Of a stretch of DNA of 64,000 nucleotides, positions 6,865 through 56,448 are shown in pieces. Position 1 is the stretch's first letter, and each line of letters starts with the position of its first letter. A program made the translations under genes and the position numbers. A model generated the notes under the pieces. It was not told the DNA's origin. It ran no database searches and saw only the letters and a program-made list of their open reading frames with translations. Origin of the DNA: an uncultured Rhizobium sp. (GTDB lineage: Bacteria; Pseudomonadota; Alphaproteobacteria; Rickettsiales; UBA1997); contig CAZICL010000003.1 of NCBI GenBank assembly GCA_964537735.1, positions 61,195-125,194 on the forward strand. Direction: 5' to 3'.

Positions 6865-8517
6865 CTAACTTTCGTAGCTAGAATACATATAAGGCGTAAC
6901 TGAATCAAACTCAGCAGCACAAGAATCCACACGTTTGTAAGATGGGTTGACGCCAAGAGCACAGCGCATCTCGCGCACTTCTTTCTCAGTTAAACCACTC
7001 AATTTACTCAAACGTTTATCGGAAAAACCCATGCGTTTTAGATTAAAGAAATTTTCCGCATCTTTTGGCAAACCTTCTTTCTTAACTTTTGCCTCAACAT
7101 CCAAAGCCGCTTTGATTTGTTCCAAAAACCATTTGTCATATTTGGTGATTGCCGCCACTTCCACAACAGACATACCTTCACGCAAAGCTTGAGCAATCAA
7201 TAATAAACGGTTTGGCGCTGCAATTTTTAACTTTTCCGTAATTATTTTAATGCGTTGTTCTGGATCTTCAGAGGCGATGGCAATATCATCCATACCGCTC
7301 AAATTTGATTCCATTGAGCGTAAAGCTTTTTGGAAAGATTCGATAAATGAGCGACCAATTCCCATCACTTCACCAACTGATTTCATTGAGCTTGATAAAG
7401 CTGTTTCGCTGCTTTTGAACTTTTCAAAAGTGAAGCGCGGAATTTTAGTAATGACATAATCAATTGTTGGTTCAAACGAAGCTGGAGTGACTCCACCGGT
7501 GATGTCATTTTTAATTTCATCTAAAGTATATCCCACAGCCAGTTTCGCTGCCACTTTAGCGATCGGAAAACCTGTAGCTTTCGAAGCCAAAGCTGAAGAA
7601 CGCGAAACGCGTGGATTCATTTCGATCACTACCAAATTGCCATTTTGTGGATTTACTGCAAATTGCACATTCGATCCACCAGTTTCAACGCCAATCTCGC
7701 GTAATACAGCAATTGAAGCGTTACGCATTTGCTGATATTCTTTGTCAGTCAAAGTTAAAGCCGGCGCAACGGTAATAGAATCGCCAGTGTGAACACCCAT
7801 CGGATCAACATTTTCAATTGAGCAAATAATGATAGTATTGTCATTTTTGTCGCGCACCACTTCCATCTCATATTCTTTCCAGCCAATAATTGACTCATCA
7901 ATCAGAACTTCATTAGTTGGTGAAATTGCCAATCCATATTCCACAATATCGCGATATTCTTCTTTGGTATATGCCACACCACCACCAGCTCCGCCCATAG
8001 TAAATGACGGACGAATGATTGCCGGAAGACCAATGCTTTCTAAGGCTTTCATACCATCTTCCAACGTTTGCACAATGGCATTTCTTGGTGTTTTTAAGCC
8101 AATTTTATCCATCGCTTTTTGAAAAAGTGCACGATCTTCTGCCTTGTGAATGGCTTCAATTGAAGCACCGATAAGCTCAACACCATATTTTTCTAATACA
8201 CCATTTTTTGCCAAACCAATTGCACAATTAAGAGCTGTTTGGCCACCAACTGTTGGTAATATTGCATCTGGACGCTCTTTGGCAATAATCTTTTCAACAA
8301 TATCTGGATTGATTGGTTCAATATAAGTACGATCGGCCAGGTTTGGATCGGTCATGATCGTTGCCGGATTGGAATTAATCAAAATCACTCTGTAGCCCTC
8401 TTCTTTTAGAGCTTTACAAGCTTGCGTTCCAGAATAATCAAATTCGCAGGCTTGACCGATAACAATCGGCCCAGCCCCAATAATTAGGACGGACTTAATA
8501 TCTGTTCTTTTTGGCAT
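6865..8517 (-). CDS. carB: carbamoyl-phosphate synthase large subunit, N-terminal half only (carboxyphosphate plus oligomerisation domains)
   Basis: The canonical CarB N-terminus [33 protein letters not shown] begins at the internal ATG 8517. The upstream ORF extension to 8601 is not conserved-looking. The ORF stops after ...[24 protein letters not shown], about 550 aa, where full-length CarB continues into its second ATP-grasp half. Confidence 0.85.
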
Positions 8518-9147: not shown

Positions 9148-9706
9148 AAAAATTGTTATTGCCAAAATTATTTCAGCCTTTGGAATCAAAGGTGAAGTCA
9201 AGATTGTAGCTTATTGCCAAGATCCTCTGCAAATTGAAAAATACCCACTTTTTGATGCCAAAGGTGCCGCATTAAAAATCAAGATTACTAACAAAAATAA
9301 AGCAGTGGTGGGTTCTAGTGGTTCTGGCGATCCGATTTTAATTGTAAAAATCGACACCATCAAAGACCGCAATGAAGCTGAATTGGCTCGTGGTTTAGAA
9401 ATTTTTGTCAATCGCGAAGATTTAAAAGAAACTGCTGCTGATGAGTTTTATTATAGCGACTTGATCGGACTTGCCGTGCAAACTGAAGATGGCACTAAAA
9501 TCGGCAAAGTGCTCAATGTACAAGATTTTGGTGCTGGCGGCATGTTGGAAATTGCGTTTGAAGAATCATTTACGCAAAGCACTGCCGGAGGAAATTTTGA
9601 TAAAATAGAGAATTTCCCTTTTAGCGGAAAAATTTTCCCGCAAGTAAACATCCAACAAGGTTTTATACAAATTGAACTGCCGGAAATTTTTAGCGATCAA
9701 AAATAA
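9140..9706 (+). CDS. rimM: 16S rRNA processing protein RimM
   Basis: The RimM N-terminus IAKIISAFGIKGEVKI starts at ATG 9140, overlapping the nusB stop by 8 nt. PRC-barrel-like C-terminus. The ORF-track start at 8993 lies inside nusB. Confidence 0.8.
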   Translation: MSKKIVIAKIISAFGIKGEVKIVAYCQDPLQIEKYPLFDAKGAALKIKITNKNKAVVGSSGSGDPILIVKIDTIKDRNEAELARGLEIFVNREDLKETAADEFYYSDLIGLAVQTEDGTKIGKVLNVQDFGAGGMLEIAFEESFTQSTAGGNFDKIENFPFSGKIFPQVNIQQGFIQIELPEIFSDQK

Positions 9707-9708
9707 TT

Positions 9709-10185
9709 ATGAAAATTTCTATAAATAAAGCGACAGTTCTGGATTTCGATAATGTTTACGAAATTCTGATGCATCAGAATGTAAACCCTTTCATGAATTA
9801 TCCGGTTTTAGAAAAAGAGGAATTTAGAAATATCTGGGAAGATATTTTGCCGCGTCTGCATTTATGGAAAGATGGCACGGAAATTATCGGACTTGCTGTT
9901 ATAAGCAAAGGCACTTACCGCGTAAAACACATCGCTTACATCGACAAATTGGCCATCAATCAGAATCTAACCAGCAAAGGGCTGGGCACAGTTTTTTTTA
10001 GCCAAATTATTGATTCTTTGGCGCAAGAAGGAATTACCAAAATCGAATTGGGAGTTGAAGTGGATAACGATCGCGCCGTGGCTTTTTACAAAAAACTGGG
10101 CTTTGAAATTGAAGGCATCCGCAAAAATTTGCTCAATCGCGAAGGCCAATTCATCGACAATTATTTTATGGCCAAAATGCTGTAA
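9709..10185 (+). CDS. GNAT-family N-acetyltransferase
   Basis: 158 aa. Acetyl-CoA binding-type segment LAINQNLTSKGLGTVFFSQII and AVAFYKKLGFE. Confidence 0.8.
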   Translation: MKISINKATVLDFDNVYEILMHQNVNPFMNYPVLEKEEFRNIWEDILPRLHLWKDGTEIIGLAVISKGTYRVKHIAYIDKLAINQNLTSKGLGTVFFSQIIDSLAQEGITKIELGVEVDNDRAVAFYKKLGFEIEGIRKNLLNREGQFIDNYFMAKML

Positions 10186-31637: not shown

Positions 31638-31652
31638 ATAAAAATTCTTTGA

Positions 31653-31742
31653 TTTAGCATTTAACCTTTATGAGACTGTCGCAAATCAAACTTTTCGTCG
31701 AATCTGGTTTTACACGATTCTAAATGATAAAGGTTAAATGCT
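31653..31742. repeat. inverted repeat carrying the TTAGCATTTAAC / GTTAAATGCT motif
   Basis: AGCATTTAACCTTTAT (31656-31671) and ATAAAGGTTAAATGCT (31727-31742) are perfect reverse complements separated by 55 nt. They lie between the spoT stop and the start of the 85-aa membrane ORF. Confidence 0.75.
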
Positions 31743-33911: not shown

Positions 33912-33927
33912 TATGCGAAATTTAACA

Positions 33928-33986
33928 TTGATGATTTCACATTTAGCAATTCATCAAATGTGAGATGATCAAATGCTAAATGCTAA
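33928..33986. repeat. imperfect 17-bp hairpin plus AAATGCTAAATGCTAA heptamer copies in the rpoZ-spoT spacer
   Basis: TTGATGATTTCACATTT (33928-33944) pairs with AAATGTGAGATGATCAA (33956-33972), 15 of 17 positions. This is followed by AAATGCTAAATGCTAA (33971-33986). Confidence 0.65.
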
Positions 33987-34337: not shown

Positions 34338-34414
34338 TGTGAAATTGGAATTGGTTGGGGAAAATTAAGGCTGCACAAGCTATAAAGACATTTTCTCTAA
34401 ATCAACAAATTTAT

Positions 34415-34446
34415 CATTTAGCATTAACATTTAGCATTTAACATTT
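34415..34446. repeat. tandem CATTTAGCATT(T)AA copies in the rpoZ/map divergent intergenic region
   Basis: The sequence catttagcattaacatttagcatttaacattt reads (YTAAATG)n toward rpoZ, about 80-110 nt upstream of its ATG. Confidence 0.65.
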
Positions 34447-51790: not shown

Positions 51791-53053
51791 TTATTTTTTT
51801 AACTCTGACTTAATTTTATCAAATCCGACAATGCCGGAAACTTTACCAATTGCTGCAAATGTTGGCTTTGATCCGCTAAAAATTTCTTCAGCCATTTTTA
51901 CCACATCAGATTTTTTTACGGCCAAAACCTGATTCATAATTTCTTTATCCAGAATCAAACGGTTAAACGATAAAATATCACCGCCGAGTTTTTGCATACG
52001 TGTACTGGTGCTTTCTTTAGACATCAACAAGCTTGCCTCAAACTGATTGCGCACTCTTTTTAATTCAGCATCGGAAACTTTTTCGCAGATCTTTTTTATC
52101 TCGCCACAAGTTGCACTAATAAGCTCGTTGGTCTTCTCCGGCGTGGTTCCAGCATAAATACCAAACAACCCGGAATCAAAATGCGAATAGTTAAAAGCAT
52201 AAACTGAATAAGCCAAACCGCGGTTTTCACGCACTTCTTGGAATAAACGCGATGACATGCCACCTCCCAAAACCATAGCCAAAATCTGTGCTGTGTAATA
52301 ATCTGAGTCGTTGTAGGACTTGCCTTTGAAGCCCATTACCAAGTTAATCTGCTCCAATTTTTTTTCTTTACGAAAATCGCCACTAATATATTTTGCTCGC
52401 TGCGGAAGTTTGATTTTACTATCTCCAAGCTGGTTAAAATATTTCTTCGACCATTTTACCAAATCACTTTGTTTAATATTGCCGGCAGCAACTACACACA
52501 TATTTTGGTAGTTATATTGCTTACCAATATAATCGACAAAATGCTGACGCGAGAATTTCTTAATATTTTTTATTGGCCCTAAAATTGAACGCCCCAGTGC
52601 CTGATCTGCATAAGCCGCCTCTTGAAAATAATCGAAAACAATATCGTCAGGAGTATCGTTAGTCATGGCAATTTCTTGCAAAATCACGCCGCGTTCTTTT
52701 TCCAATTCAACCTTGTCAAAAGTGGAATTTTGCAAAATATCGGCCAGAAATTCGACGGCAAATTCAGCATGTTTTTTCAACACCTTGGCGTAATAAACCG
52801 TTTTTTCTTTAGAAGTATAAGCATTGATACGACCGCCAATTCCTTCAAATTCTTCAGCAATTTGACGTGCTGATCTTTTAGCGGTGCCTTTAAAGGCCAT
52901 ATGCTCAAGGAAGTGTGAAATACCATTAATTTCAGGAGTTTCGTTGCGACTTCCAGTATTGACAAACACACCAACTGAAACCGTTTCAACATCTTTCATT
53001 TCATCAACCCCAACACGCAAACCGTTAGGTAAAGTAATTATTTCTTTGGTCAT
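51791..53053 (-). CDS. M16-family zinc peptidase (mitochondrial processing peptidase-like)
   Basis: Inverted zinc motif HFLEHMAFKGT, downstream E in REVILQEI-like VILQEI. 420 aa. Confidence 0.85.
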   Translation of the reverse strand: MTKEIITLPNGLRVGVDEMKDVETVSVGVFVNTGSRNETPEINGISHFLEHMAFKGTAKRSARQIAEEFEGIGGRINAYTSKEKTVYYAKVLKKHAEFAVEFLADILQNSTFDKVELEKERGVILQEIAMTNDTPDDIVFDYFQEAAYADQALGRSILGPIKNIKKFSRQHFVDYIGKQYNYQNMCVVAAGNIKQSDLVKWSKKYFNQLGDSKIKLPQRAKYISGDFRKEKKLEQINLVMGFKGKSYNDSDYYTAQILAMVLGGGMSSRLFQEVRENRGLAYSVYAFNYSHFDSGLFGIYAGTTPEKTNELISATCGEIKKICEKVSDAELKRVRNQFEASLLMSKESTSTRMQKLGGDILSFNRLILDKEIMNQVLAVKKSDVVKMAEEIFSGSKPTFAAIGKVSGIVGFDKIKSELKK

Positions 53054-53167
53054 TTAGCATTTAAGATTTAGCATTTAACATTTGGAAAATCTGAGTTGTC
53101 GGCTTCATTTCCAAGCCAATTTCACGATTAATCAAATGTTAAATGCTAAATGTTAAATGCTAAATGA
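53051..53167. promoter_or_regulatory. mirror-image (YTAAATG)n heptamer arrays bracketing a divergent intergenic region
   Basis: 53051-53083 CATTTAGCATTTAAGATTTAGCATTTAACATTT is the reverse complement of 53135-53167 AAATGTTAAATGCTAAATGTTAAATGCTAAATG with one mismatch. The outermost CAT/ATG are the start codons of the two flanking genes. Confidence 0.8.
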
Positions 53168-54978
53168 AATCTTCCCCGATTCTGTCAATTCGTGAAGCAA
53201 CAATTTCCTTCGCTAAGAAAATCCTCTTTGAAAATCTGCATCTTAATATTTTTCCCCGCGACCGTATTTGCTTAATCGGCAAAAACGGCGTCGGCAAAAC
53301 CACTTTGATGAATGCAATTGTTGGAAAATTTGAGATGGATCATGGCGAGCATTGGATGATGCCTGGTACTGTGATTGGCTATTTATCACAAAGCGAATTT
53401 TTGCCACCAAACCTGACGGTTTTTGATTTCATCATGACTGGTTTAAAAATTGACGAGCATAAATCTTACGTCATCGATATTGTCTGCGACCATTTACAAA
53501 TTGACCGCAACGCCCTCACCCACAATCTTTCCGGCGGCCAGAAACGCCGCGTCAATCTTGCCCGTGCTTTGGTTTTAGAACCCGATATTTTATTACTTGA
53601 TGAACCAACCAACCATCTTGATTTAGAAATTATTGAATGGTTGGAAAATTATTTACAATCCTTCCAAGGCTCTGTGATTGTGATTTCACACGATCGCAAA
53701 TTTCTCGAAAAAGTTTCTAACAAAGTTTTTTGGCTGCGCATGGGCCAGATTAAAATTAATCTTGATGGTTATAAAAACTTCGATGAATGGTCGCAAAACA
53801 TCATTGAACATGAACAGCGTGAAATGGAAAATTTACAGAAAAAAGTAACCTTGGAGAGTGGTTGGTTGCAGACTGGCGTAACTGGAAGACGCAAAAGAAA
53901 TATTGGTCGTTTGCATTATTTACAAGAGTTGCGACAAAAACTTGAGGCCCAAAAAAAACTGGTGCGCACCAATCAAAGCTACATCAAAATTCAGTCACAA
54001 AAAATTGAAGAAGATGCGCCGCAAGTGATTCTAAGCTTCAATAATGTTAGCAAAGGTTATGGCGAAAAGAAATTAATCGAAAAATTTTCACTTAAAATTT
54101 TGCGCGGTGAGCGCATCGGCATTATCGGCAAAAACGGTTCGGGAAAATCGACACTTTTAAAAATGATGGTTGGTGAAGTTACGCCCGATCAAGGCACAGT
54201 AAAACCAGCGCGCGACATCCATCTATCTTACTTCGATCAAGTACGCAGCAAAATCAAAGCTGGATCAACAATTCAGGATATTCTCTGCGAAACTGGCGGT
54301 GAATATGTAAATTTAGCCGGCGGCAAAACTGTGCATATTTGCGGTTATATGAAGAATTTTTTGTTTGATCCAAATGATCGTGAAGCTTTGGCTGGCACGC
54401 TTTCCGGCGGTCAACAAAATCGTTTACTTTTGGCAAAAACTTTAGCCAATCCCGGAAATTTTATGATTTTGGACGAACCAACAAATGACCTGGATATGGA
54501 TACGCTCGACATGTTGCAGGAATATTTAGAAAAGTATGAAGGCACGCTGATTATTGTGTCGCACGATCGCGATTTTCTGGATAATGTCGCAACTTCAATT
54601 TTAGCCTTTGAAGGAGATGGTGTGATTACTAATCATATTGGCGGCTATTCTGATTATTTGGCTTATTGTGAGAAACAGGGAAAATCAGTTGCTGCTAGTT
54701 TGAAGAATGGCCCCAATCTGAGAACAGCATTACAAATTTCTCCTCCCCAAAAAGAGGAGAAGAAATTTCTCTACAAACACCGTATCGAACTTGAAAAGCT
54801 GCCCGCCAAAATTGAAAAGCTGGAAAATAAAATCCGTGAATTAAGTGAAGAGTTAAGTGAAACAGATGATCGCAGCAGCGCAAATCTAGCACATATCGCC
54901 ATCGAAATTGCCAAACATCAAAAAGAATTGGATGAAGCTGAAAGCAGATGGCTTGAGCTGGAAGAGTTAAAATCCTAG
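53164..54978 (+). CDS. uup: ABC-F family ATPase (Uup-like, two ABC domains plus C-terminal coiled coil)
   Basis: Two Walker A sites (GKNGVGKTT, GKNGSGKST), two signature motifs (LSGGQKRR, LSGGQQNR), Walker B LLLDEPTNHLD / ILDEPTNDLD. No TM domain. Confidence 0.9.
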   Translation: MKSSPILSIREATISFAKKILFENLHLNIFPRDRICLIGKNGVGKTTLMNAIVGKFEMDHGEHWMMPGTVIGYLSQSEFLPPNLTVFDFIMTGLKIDEHKSYVIDIVCDHLQIDRNALTHNLSGGQKRRVNLARALVLEPDILLLDEPTNHLDLEIIEWLENYLQSFQGSVIVISHDRKFLEKVSNKVFWLRMGQIKINLDGYKNFDEWSQNIIEHEQREMENLQKKVTLESGWLQTGVTGRRKRNIGRLHYLQELRQKLEAQKKLVRTNQSYIKIQSQKIEEDAPQVILSFNNVSKGYGEKKLIEKFSLKILRGERIGIIGKNGSGKSTLLKMMVGEVTPDQGTVKPARDIHLSYFDQVRSKIKAGSTIQDILCETGGEYVNLAGGKTVHICGYMKNFLFDPNDREALAGTLSGGQQNRLLLAKTLANPGNFMILDEPTNDLDMDTLDMLQEYLEKYEGTLIIVSHDRDFLDNVATSILAFEGDGVITNHIGGYSDYLAYCEKQGKSVAASLKNGPNLRTALQISPPQKEEKKFLYKHRIELEKLPAKIEKLENKIRELSEELSETDDRSSANLAHIAIEIAKHQKELDEAESRWLELEELKS

Positions 54979-56112: not shown

Positions 56113-56448
56113 TTAGGAAAATTTTTTACCAAAAAATCTGCCGCTATAATAACAGAGAATAGTAGCTATTCCGAGGGCGAAAAAAATAACGCTATAAATT
56201 TTGAAGGAATCTTCCAGAGCAAAAAATTCAGCAACCATCCAAATTGAGTTGGCAACAATCCAAAAAATAATCGCTAAATTGTGAAATAATTCCGATTTGA
56301 TGTGACGCATTTTATAAGTGATGTAAATGGCAAAACCAAGAGTTGGAATAATCATAAACACACCAAAGGCCCGCCAACTCATCATCCAACTTAAATCTTT
56401 GAACAACCACAAAATGATGTGGAGATTCTCATATTTCCTGATGGGCAT
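56113..56448 (-). CDS. small integral membrane hypothetical protein
   Basis: 111 aa with 3-4 hydrophobic segments rich in Trp/Phe. Lies 37 nt downstream of ppdK on the same strand. Confidence 0.5.
   Translation of the reverse strand: MPIRKYENLHIILWLFKDLSWMMSWRAFGVFMIIPTLGFAIYITYKMRHIKSELFHNLAIIFWIVANSIWMVAEFFALEDSFKIYSVIFFALGIATILCYYSGRFFGKKFS

Follow-up and report, generated by a model that had tools for sequence, protein, structure and literature searches.

Mirror-image heptamer arrays fused to the start codons of a divergent M16 peptidase/ABC-F gene pair in an alphaproteobacterial metagenome-assembled genome

Results

In a 64,000-nucleotide stretch of contig CAZICL010000003.1 (assembly GCA_964537735.1, positions 61,195 to 125,194; hereafter the window), the spacer between the divergent genes for an M16-family peptidase and an ABC-F ATPase is a palindrome whose arms are tandem arrays of the heptamer YTAAATG and whose outermost units are the start codons of both genes. 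Comparison of this spacer with its orthologues shows that the start-proximal units are conserved in one close relative and that, in another, the repeat unit has been replaced with compensating changes in both arms. Based on the results below, we favor a combined account, to which we assign a probability of about 0.45, in which the palindrome is a home-grown mirror heptamer microsatellite that originated by slippage, provides the leaders of the two genes, and has had the pairing of its arms maintained.

The left arm (CATTTAGCATTTAAGATTTAGCATTTAACATTT, positions 53051-53083) contains 4.7 copies of YTAAATG on the minus strand and points into the M16 peptidase gene, and the right arm (AAATGTTAAATGCTAAATGTTAAATGCTAAATG, positions 53134-53166, plus strand) also contains 4.7 copies, with T and C alternating to form a 14-nt super-unit. 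Tandem Repeats Finder (TRF) found a period of 7 (4.7 copies) in both arms and also a period of 14 in the right arm (2.4 copies, 100% match). The two arms are reverse complements at every position but 53065, which is G in the left arm and would be C in a perfect match to the right arm; this mismatch produces AAATC on the minus strand and removes an AUG at -14. In a repeat search, the inverted repeat extends to 42 nt at 90% identity (53050-53091 and 53126-53167). The ATGs of the right arm are found at 53136, 53143, 53150, 53157, and 53164, the last being the ABC-F start codon, and the outermost ATG of the left arm (53053-53051) is the M16 start codon, leaving an intergenic gap of 110 nt between the two. 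The reading frame that opens at 53143 encodes MLNVKC followed by a TAA that adjoins the ATG at 53164.

The central 50 nt between the arms (53084-53133), which presumably hold two divergent promoters, contain an apical stem, GGCTT (53101-53105) paired with AAGCC (53113-53117) around a 7-nt loop. Because this center is itself partly palindromic, the entire intergenic region is a single palindrome capable of forming a hairpin or a cruciform, with one hairpin covering the full 118-nt spacer. When the sequence from 53045 to 53172 was folded as RNA, its free energy was -54.7 kcal/mol compared with -19.5 +/- 3.2 kcal/mol for shuffled sequences (z = -11.2), and when it was folded as DNA, the value was -36.9 kcal/mol (z = -11.4). 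The 14-mer YTAAATGYTAAATG, with at most one mismatch allowed, has 11 matches in the window compared with 0.67 expected, and none of 100 shuffled sequences reached 11. From these results, we conclude that the arms are non-random and that chance is ruled out as their source. A first-pass annotation of the window had described 33-nt arms that are reverse complements with a single mismatch, 4-5 heptamers in each, ATGs at 7-nt intervals with a MLNVKC-stop frame abutting the real start, and a repeat that was not an artefact of composition, and each of these descriptions held when examined by the searches above. Its picture of a spacer that is merely bounded by two arms needed revision, given the palindromic center.

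The scan of the spacer with consensus sequences found no match to a sigma-70 promoter and no terminator-like site. A search of the whole window against Rfam gave 0 matches at the gathering score, the uup motif, thermometers, and riboswitches included; the matches below this threshold were to plant miRNA-precursor models only, which matched as generic long AU hairpins. As a separate candidate, we considered that the arrays themselves might contain a sigma-70 promoter directed across the spacer (TTAACA-N16-TAACAT, CATTTAA strand), and we rejected this idea on three grounds: the window arm agrees at only 8 of 12 positions, the scan was empty, and the putative -10 element is lost in the relative L124. 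Sites for CtrA, Fur, IHF, and H-NS were dismissed on inspection by eye for unsuitable spacings.

The assignment of the outermost ATGs as genuine start codons, also made by the first-pass annotation, agrees with the N termini of homologous proteins. The ABC-F gene (53164-54978, plus strand) encodes a Uup-like protein of 604 amino acids with two ABC_tran domains and an ABC_tran_CTD domain, and its start is supported by the N termini of >100 homologues (MKSSPILSIREATISFAKK, with MK(S/N/T)SP(I/L)LSIREATISFAKK at the same position). The M16 gene (51791-53053, minus strand) encodes a 420-amino acid protein with Peptidase_M16 and M16_C domains, and its start is supported by the N termini of orthologues (MTKEIITLPNGLRV, MTK(E/K)IITLPNGLRV). 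On the basis of these N termini, both start codons are authentic. The homologues carry the labels of Rickettsiales, Alphaproteobacteria, or Pseudomonadota metagenome-assembled genomes (MAGs), and the window itself is part of a 154.8-kb contig from a groundwater metagenome (ENA ERZ909576 k127_102491).

A Shine-Dalgarno core was found upstream of only 3 of the 47 open reading frames (ORFs) in the window (∼38% GC) and, as previously noted for this pair, upstream of neither M16 nor ABC-F. Start codons in the window have A/T-rich contexts (...taaATG, ...aaaATG), and 34 of these 47 ORFs end in TAA. When the region from -30 to +30 was folded with a single arm as the leader, the minimum free energies for the two genes were -1.0 and -1.3 kcal/mol compared with a mean of -5.0 kcal/mol across 46 window genes, which places ABC-F third and M16 fifth among the least structured initiation regions. 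These values are compatible with Shine-Dalgarno-independent initiation and with the conservation peak described next.

The relative L124 contains the same gene pair, and its proteins are 83.8% (ABC-F) and 90% (M16) identical in amino acid sequence to those of the window, with only 50-54% identity at 4-fold degenerate sites. Across this distance, identity is 100% over at least the outer 18 nt of the left arm, the outer 23 nt of the right arm, both start codons, and the first codons of the two genes. The start-proximal units are local conservation maxima, in a peak that spans -22 to +25, compared with 60-70% identity in the center of the spacer and ∼80-90% in the coding flanks. The central 50 nt are the least conserved part of the spacer, yet they include the conserved blocks ATCTGAGTT and CCAAnCCAATnTCAC. 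L124 has the same number of units and the same arrangement of mini-ORFs as the window, and L001 and L002 (the latter from a second sample) share the right arm of the window unchanged. The single mismatch between the arms is also common to the window and L124, and therefore each arm has been conserved independently of the other.

A different type of change was found in the relative L125 (∼86% identity in ABC-F), in which the same two genes are separated by a 78-nt spacer with mirror arrays of YTAATTC/GAATTAR. In this spacer, the units GGAATTA, AGAATTA, AGAATTA, and GGAATTA on the left are followed by TTAATTC, TTAATTC, CTAATTC, and TTAATTG on the right (1853-1884), so the last unit supplies a TTG start codon for ABC-F, the internal units carry TTC, and the leader has no other start codon. 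When the window and L125 spacers were aligned with MAFFT and analyzed with RNAalifold, the arms aligned unit for unit, and 6 of the 28 predicted pairs were compensatory.

The relative L187, from the same sample as L124, retains YTAAATG arrays at M16/ABC-F and has mirror arrays of GGTAAGT/ACTTACC at three neighboring spacers, namely CTP synthase/NMO (7007-7065), map/rpoZ (9420-9500), and rpoZ/spoT (9916-9989). The rpoZ/spoT array occupies the position of a YTAAATG element in the window (site B, below); RNAalifold produced no alignment of these two spacers, the heptamers being unrelated. The map/rpoZ spacer contains related units, the third array lies at a spacer that is array-free in the window, and the start-proximal arm (CCACTTA) has neither an AUG nor a stop codon. 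The apparent use of one unit by neighboring spacers hints at local spread.

In ∼25 more distant relatives (60-81% identity), the kind that made up most of the related loci from a metagenome search, the adjacency of M16 and ABC-F is kept with AT-rich spacers of 70-110 nt that have no arrays, and in some of them a GC-rich palindromic insert is present in their place. The array-free ABC-F orthologues still begin ...ATAAATGAAATCT, and the heptamer therefore resembles the ancestral start context. Other changes were seen at this junction in individual genomes. In L122 (∼9850-9960, = L130) and in L136/L137, GC-rich, near-perfect palindromes of ∼100 nt (AAAAAACCCCCCGACCCCTACGGGGCCACC... and CTATAGACCCCGCAACAAGTGCGGGGTGAC...) are found upstream of ABC-F, and they look like inserts of the type formed by miniature inverted-repeat transposable elements (MITEs) or repetitive extragenic palindromic (REP) elements. 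In L121 (7740-9940) and L122 (7634-9830), a pair of genes for a multicopper oxidase (CopA-like) and CopB lies between M16 and ABC-F and splits the divergent pair.

The first-pass annotation had treated the palindrome as a one-off, but heptamer arrays are present at four intergenic sites in the window when M16/ABC-F is included. Site A (31651-31741, minus strand) lies between the stop codon of a spoT-like gene (31746) and the start codon of a DUF6356 gene (31637), with arms at 31651-31671 and 31720-31741 that form a perfect 15-bp stem (GCATTTAACCTTTAT and ATAAAGGTTAAATGC) and a variant unit, ATAAAGG, that is mirrored in both arms. Site B (33920-33986, minus strand) lies between the stop codon of rpoZ (33993) and the start codon of the spoT-like gene (33911) and consists of degenerate CATTT/AAATG heptamers. 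Site C (34409-34446, minus strand) is a single array (period of 7, 5.6 copies, one indel) in the spacer that separates the divergent genes rpoZ (minus strand) and map (plus strand), and it lies upstream of both, at a distance of 70 nt from rpoZ and 54 nt from map.

When folded, sites A and B form hairpins on the mRNA-sense strand, and their sense arrays end 13 nt (site A) and 7 nt (site B) upstream of the start codon. The sequences between the arms are dissimilar among the four sites, which have only the heptamer in common and not the arm length. The site A spacer is 108 nt long in the window compared with 16-52 nt, array-free, in L187, L188, and L189, and by this comparison it appears to have expanded at a stop context, ...TAAATCAAA..., that was ancestral. 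It is flanked by GCTAA(A)TC, a possible duplication that slippage explains equally well.

Scanning a genome collection for three perfect YTAAATG units gave at least 118 loci, isolates included, from Cyanobacteria, Bacteroidota, Ignavibacteria, Acidobacteriota, Planctomycetota, Verrucomicrobiota, the candidate phyla radiation, and some Gammaproteobacteria, and the layout (CATTTAA)n-spacer-(TTAAATG)n was seen in many of them. This result could be read as a conserved pan-bacterial motif, a candidate that we rejected after control searches: in viral contigs, YTAAATG was found at 83 loci and three composition-matched control heptamers at 59, 36, and at least 120. Since the controls are about as common, the breadth of the YTAAATG matches reflects the general abundance of AT-rich heptamer arrays.

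A period of 7 prevails among the tandem repeats at these 118 loci, with 305 TRF rows (168 of them for other heptamers) compared with 6 rows with a period of 6 and 19 with a period of 8. These loci contain 26 mirror pairs, 10 of them built from other heptamers, and variant units are mirrored in both arms in other genomes too. With gene boundaries taken from crude calls (longest ORFs), 29 of 51 mirror-pair arm ends are within 20 nt of an ORF boundary, among them 15 of the 22 at stop codons, and the pairs are distributed over 19 co-directional, 5 divergent, and 1 convergent spacers. An inverted partner was found for 11 of 127 YTAAATG arrays in bacterial genomes and for 0 of 84 in viral contigs, and the inverted pairs show a 10:1 preference for the CATTT...AAATG order. 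From these results, we conclude that mirror heptamer arrays are a widespread class at bacterial gene boundaries, represented in Acidobacteriota, Bacteroidota, Planctomycetota, and other phyla, in which YTAAATG itself is not special.

Several individual genomes illustrate this class. In a Pyrinomonadaceae MAG (L090, 5170-5660 and 7360-7560), three consecutive spacers within 8 kb each have a different mirror heptamer (AAAGTTC, YTAAATG, and AAAATCC), and the arrays fill the spacers from boundary to boundary; one of these spacers separates a divergent pair whose start codons adjoin the arms. Three copies in one Pyrinomonadaceae MAG have unrelated cores between their arms, and acidobacterial copies have the inner units CATTTATC/GATAAATG in common. 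In Kordia aestuariivivens (L119, 4850-5560), ∼700 nt are occupied by successive heptamer arrays (GGTATGT, GAGTTGT, TTTACAT/TTTAGCA, CTCTGTT, ATTCGAT, and others), an extreme case of clustering. In a Cytophagales MAG (L079, 1867-2144), (CATTTAA)x11 and (CATTTAA)x8 surround a GC-rich palindrome, and immediately downstream of this arrangement is a small ORF whose translation, judged by eye, resembles four-helix-bundle proteins of the type encoded by 23S rRNA intervening sequences (IVS). Variable heptamer repeats have been described upstream of an IVS ORF in Coxiella (PMC4990558).

Three further observations concern the surroundings of the M16/ABC-F pair. A 111-amino acid ORF without known function (56113-56448) is missing from L002, the second-sample sequence with an identical ABC-F protein, and the L002 contig ends inside the right heptamer arm, probably by an assembly break at the repeat. 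Neither of two small ORFs next to the locus has a Pfam match, and no small DNA-binding gene was found nearby. The divergent homoserine dehydrogenase/ileS spacer contains a conserved block, TTGACCTAWTTTCAAGGCCTTTGTTAT (window ∼63790-63820, L124 ∼20810-20845), that is likely a promoter and an example of a conserved promoter in this lineage.

Discussion

The origin that we infer for the palindrome begins with nTAAATG start contexts in a Shine-Dalgarno-poor, TAA-rich genome, where two divergent starts of this kind would already form a short inverted repeat (CATTTA...TAAATG). Such a unit may have been amplified by replication slippage, a process that prefers 7-nt units in bacteria, and the complementarity of the arms would then have been kept by arm-to-arm templating or by selection. 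As for its present role, both promoters would be located in the central ∼50 nt, and each arm would form the whole ∼30-nt 5' leader of one gene, unstructured, A/U-rich, and Shine-Dalgarno-free, with the authentic AUG presented in an A-rich context. Judged from the sequence, the arms are probably transcribed leaders, and in the proposed account this role is the reason that the three start-adjacent units are frozen in evolution. Complementarity of the arms is a second conserved property, which would be expressed as a hairpin in read-through RNA or as a cruciform in supercoiled DNA. In co-directional members of the family, the base of the stem would place the stop codon of the first gene next to the start codon of the second, a juxtaposition that would permit translational coupling or processing independently of the heptamer sequence.

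Among the roles proposed in the first-pass annotation, an A/U-rich leader is partly retained, since the arms are among the least structured initiation regions provided that transcription starts in the central 50 nt, while the control by upstream open reading frames (uORFs) that accompanied it is unsupported. Pairing through a cruciform or over a long range has the best comparative support of the options in that annotation, from the 6 compensatory pairs in L125 and the mirrored variant units.

Several results weigh against the account that we favor. The scan for sigma-70 promoters in the spacer was empty, and transcripts that start outside the palindrome would lock the AUGs in the -54.7 kcal/mol stem. 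On the ABC-F side, two of the four AUGs ahead of the start codon open an out-of-frame ORF across the real start, which is awkward for an optimized leader. The compensatory changes could be the product of a mutational process, arm-to-arm templating, in place of selection. The inner portion of the L124 left arm has degenerated with no matching changes opposite, so full-arm pairing is not strictly required, and most relatives with the same gene pair are array-free, so the arrays are dispensable. Finally, across phyla and with genes called crudely as the longest ORFs, single YTAAATG arrays in co-directional spacers are found in the sense orientation 27 times and in the antisense orientation 25 times, and convergent spacers are also occupied; therefore, a leader role cannot be the general function of the class.

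The explanation that best survives beside ours, and that we consider possible but unlikely, is that structure alone matters, either as a cruciform in the DNA, extruded by the negative supercoiling that two divergent promoters generate between them, or as a hairpin in RNAs that read through or have long leaders (for instance, an RNase III site, a start-codon mask, or a thermosensor), with the heptamer and its AUGs incidental. It would account for the folding of the whole spacer into one hairpin with z about -11 as both RNA and DNA, for the 6 compensatory pairs in L125 and the mirrored variant units, for the same mirror architecture built from unrelated heptamers at orthologous spacers and from 10 other heptamers in other phyla, and for elements that span spacers from stop codon to start codon. 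It does not account for the mismatch that is shared and uncorrected, nor for the pattern in L124, where only the start-proximal units are 100% conserved and the inner left arm has decayed uncompensated; together these two features point to a primary-sequence constraint beside the start codons. In addition, for divergent genes, an RNA spanning both arms would need promoters inside the opposite gene.

It is also conceivable, at somewhat longer odds, that the arrays are a neutral or selfish by-product, built and erased at AT-rich junctions by heptamer slippage and quasi-palindrome templating and tolerated as harmless sequences that serve no purpose. Consistent with such a process, most relatives that keep the M16/ABC-F adjacency are array-free, arrays have been gained, lost, and replaced among close relatives, control heptamers are as common as YTAAATG in viral contigs, no orientation bias is seen across phyla, and a polymerase-slippage bias for 7-nt units has been hypothesized (PMC4692102). 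Against this, the outer arms are 100% conserved in L124, with the same copy number, at a distance where 4-fold sites retain 50-54% and the spacer center 60-70% identity. Furthermore, a purely mutational process would not obviously produce inverted partners in 11 of 127 bacterial arrays and 0 of 84 viral ones or the 10:1 bias in their order.

A broader and more speculative proposal, which we think improbable as it stands, is that mirror heptamer arrays are a distinct cross-phylum class of cis-elements, self-assembling palindromes that occupy the space from the stop or start codon of one gene to the start codon of its neighbor and that function through arm pairing and the 7-nt period and not through sequence, and that are built by a dedicated or polymerase-intrinsic mechanism. 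Such elements would, for example, juxtapose stop and start codons for Shine-Dalgarno-independent coupling or ribosome hand-over, or bind OB-fold or cold-shock-type proteins cooperatively with ∼7-nt footprints. The M16/ABC-F palindrome would then be the divergent-gene version, one mirrored initiation module for two genes.

Far less likely is a system of termination and reinitiation, akin to the nested mini-ORF control raised in the first-pass annotation and to the leader-peptide control of some ABC-F genes, in which ribosomes would load on the repeated AUGs, translate MLNVKC or MLNAK, and be handed to the real AUG, so that expression would be tuned or coupled. The frame from the AUG at -21 does end in a UAA adjoining the start codon, that from the AUG at -14 ends in a UGA overlapping the AUG, and the identical layout is kept in L124. 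Against this, start codons are missing from inside the L125 array, whose units carry TTC except for the TTG of the last one, so these uORFs are missing from an orthologous leader; the start-proximal arm of L187 has no AUG or stop; the conserved mismatch on the M16 arm deletes one AUG; and neither a terminator or antiterminator in the spacer nor an Rfam leader family at the gathering score was found.

We give very little credence to the view, also among the earlier proposals, that the arrays are shared operators for a sequence-specific heptad-binding regulator (for instance, a ribbon-helix-helix protein similar to omega of pSM19035) that co-regulates M16, ABC-F, rpoZ, spoT, and map. The heptamer does recur, in both direct and inverted arrays, in four intergenic regions of the window, but it is replaced wholesale at orthologous spacers (YTAATTC in L125; GGTAAGT at rpoZ/spoT in L187, which keeps YTAAATG at M16/ABC-F), neighboring spacers in other genomes each carry their own heptamer, and the search near the locus found no small DNA-binding gene, the two small ORFs there being without Pfam matches.

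A mobile element (a MITE, REP, or REPIN-like sequence) or a phase-variable contingency repeat is hardly tenable. In its favor, the elements are dispersed, intergenic, and palindromic, the acidobacterial copies have inner units in common, site A looks inserted relative to its relatives between GCTAA(A)TC flanks, and palindromic inserts of other kinds are found in this spacer in related genomes. Against it, the inter-arm sequences show no relationship from copy to copy, whether among the four window sites or among the three Pyrinomonadaceae copies; no transposase or REP-associated tyrosine transposase (RAYT) context was found in the window regions examined; the GTAG/CGTC heads described for REPs (PMC3733652) are absent; the arrays sit on essential start codons; and copy number is identical in the few sequences available (window, L001, L002, and L124), with no sign of phase variation.

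These observations show that both members of a divergent gene pair can have their authentic start codons fused to heptamer arrays, that the start-proximal units of such arrays can be under strong purifying selection, and that the unit can be exchanged en bloc at orthologous spacers with the mirror architecture and arm pairing kept. If the arms are leaders, they offer a simple, testable model of start-site presentation in Shine-Dalgarno-free genomes. If pairing matters, the arrays would be the counterpart of REP-type palindromes at the gene junctions of several phyla, but self-generated and independent of sequence, and if they are neutral, they would be a clean natural example of 7-nt slippage and palindrome templating shaping gene boundaries. 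The frozen start-proximal units at this locus and the compensated unit replacement elsewhere make this system a good experimental entry point.

Among known systems, the omega (ribbon-helix-helix) repressor of plasmid pSM19035 binds 7-bp heptads in contiguous direct or inverted arrays next to promoters, and its heptad is fixed (WATCACW) and recognized by one protein. The arrays described here resemble these operators in having 7-bp units in direct and inverted arrangement; they differ in that the heptamer is swapped between orthologous spacers and that no gene for a cognate protein was found near the locus. Palindromes of the REP type and bacterial interspersed mosaic elements (BIMEs) have been linked to mRNA stability or termination. 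REP/BIME and REPIN sequences are, like the present elements, short, dispersed intergenic palindromes that form hairpins between cistrons (PMC3116915, PMC3733652), but a REP is a single conserved sequence that is present tens to hundreds of times, has GTAG/CGTC heads, and is accompanied by a RAYT (PMC3733652). In contrast, the present arms are tandem heptamers of locus- or genome-specific sequence with no associated transposase, and neither a GTAG/CGTC head nor, in the window regions examined, a transposase-like ORF was found.

Closer parallels exist among heptameric simple sequence repeats (SSRs), which are over-represented in bacterial intergenic DNA, with polymerase slippage proposed as the cause (Rehm et al. 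2015, PMC4692102, citing Mrazek 2007). They include the G-rich GGGAATC and GGGGAYT repeats of Xanthomonas and Nostoc and the cyanobacterial short tandemly repeated repetitive (STRR) heptamers, and the Xanthomonas GGGAATC repeats include inverted pairs capable of forming a stem-loop or cruciform (PMC4692102). The present elements share with the STRR and GGGAATC repeats the head-to-tail 7-nt copies in intergenic arrays at several loci, within the 64-kb window in this case, some of them as inverted pairs. They differ from the GGGAATC type, a quadruplex candidate, in being AT-rich, in having stop codons in all six frames, in being fused to start codons, and in coming from an alphaproteobacterial MAG.

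The TAACTGA direct repeats, described from marine Beggiatoaceae and also present in Cyanobacteria and Bacteroidetes (MacGregor 2015, PMC4679880), come in sets of 2-6 copies, with many such sets in a genome, and most of them face a start codon and end ∼1 nt upstream of it. The starts behind these repeats lack a ribosome-binding site (RBS), and a translational role has been proposed but is unproven (PMC4679880). A literature search for the exact repeat strings found in our arrays returned only an irrelevant match to a zebrafish primer. Both systems have tandem intergenic 7-nt units in which TAA is followed by NTG, near starts without an RBS, and both arms of the M16/ABC-F palindrome are oriented forward and end in such a start codon. 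However, the unit YTAAATG shares only TAA plus NTG with TAACTGA; TAACTGA forms 169 direct sets and one inverted set, whereas the present arrays form near-perfect mirror pairs that make a palindrome; and here the last unit is the start codon itself and the unit sequence turns over among close relatives. Intergenic heptamer repeat arrays, of unestablished function, were thus already known (PMC4692102, PMC4679880), and what is new here is their arrangement as mirror-image arrays fused to start codons, in an alphaproteobacterial genome.

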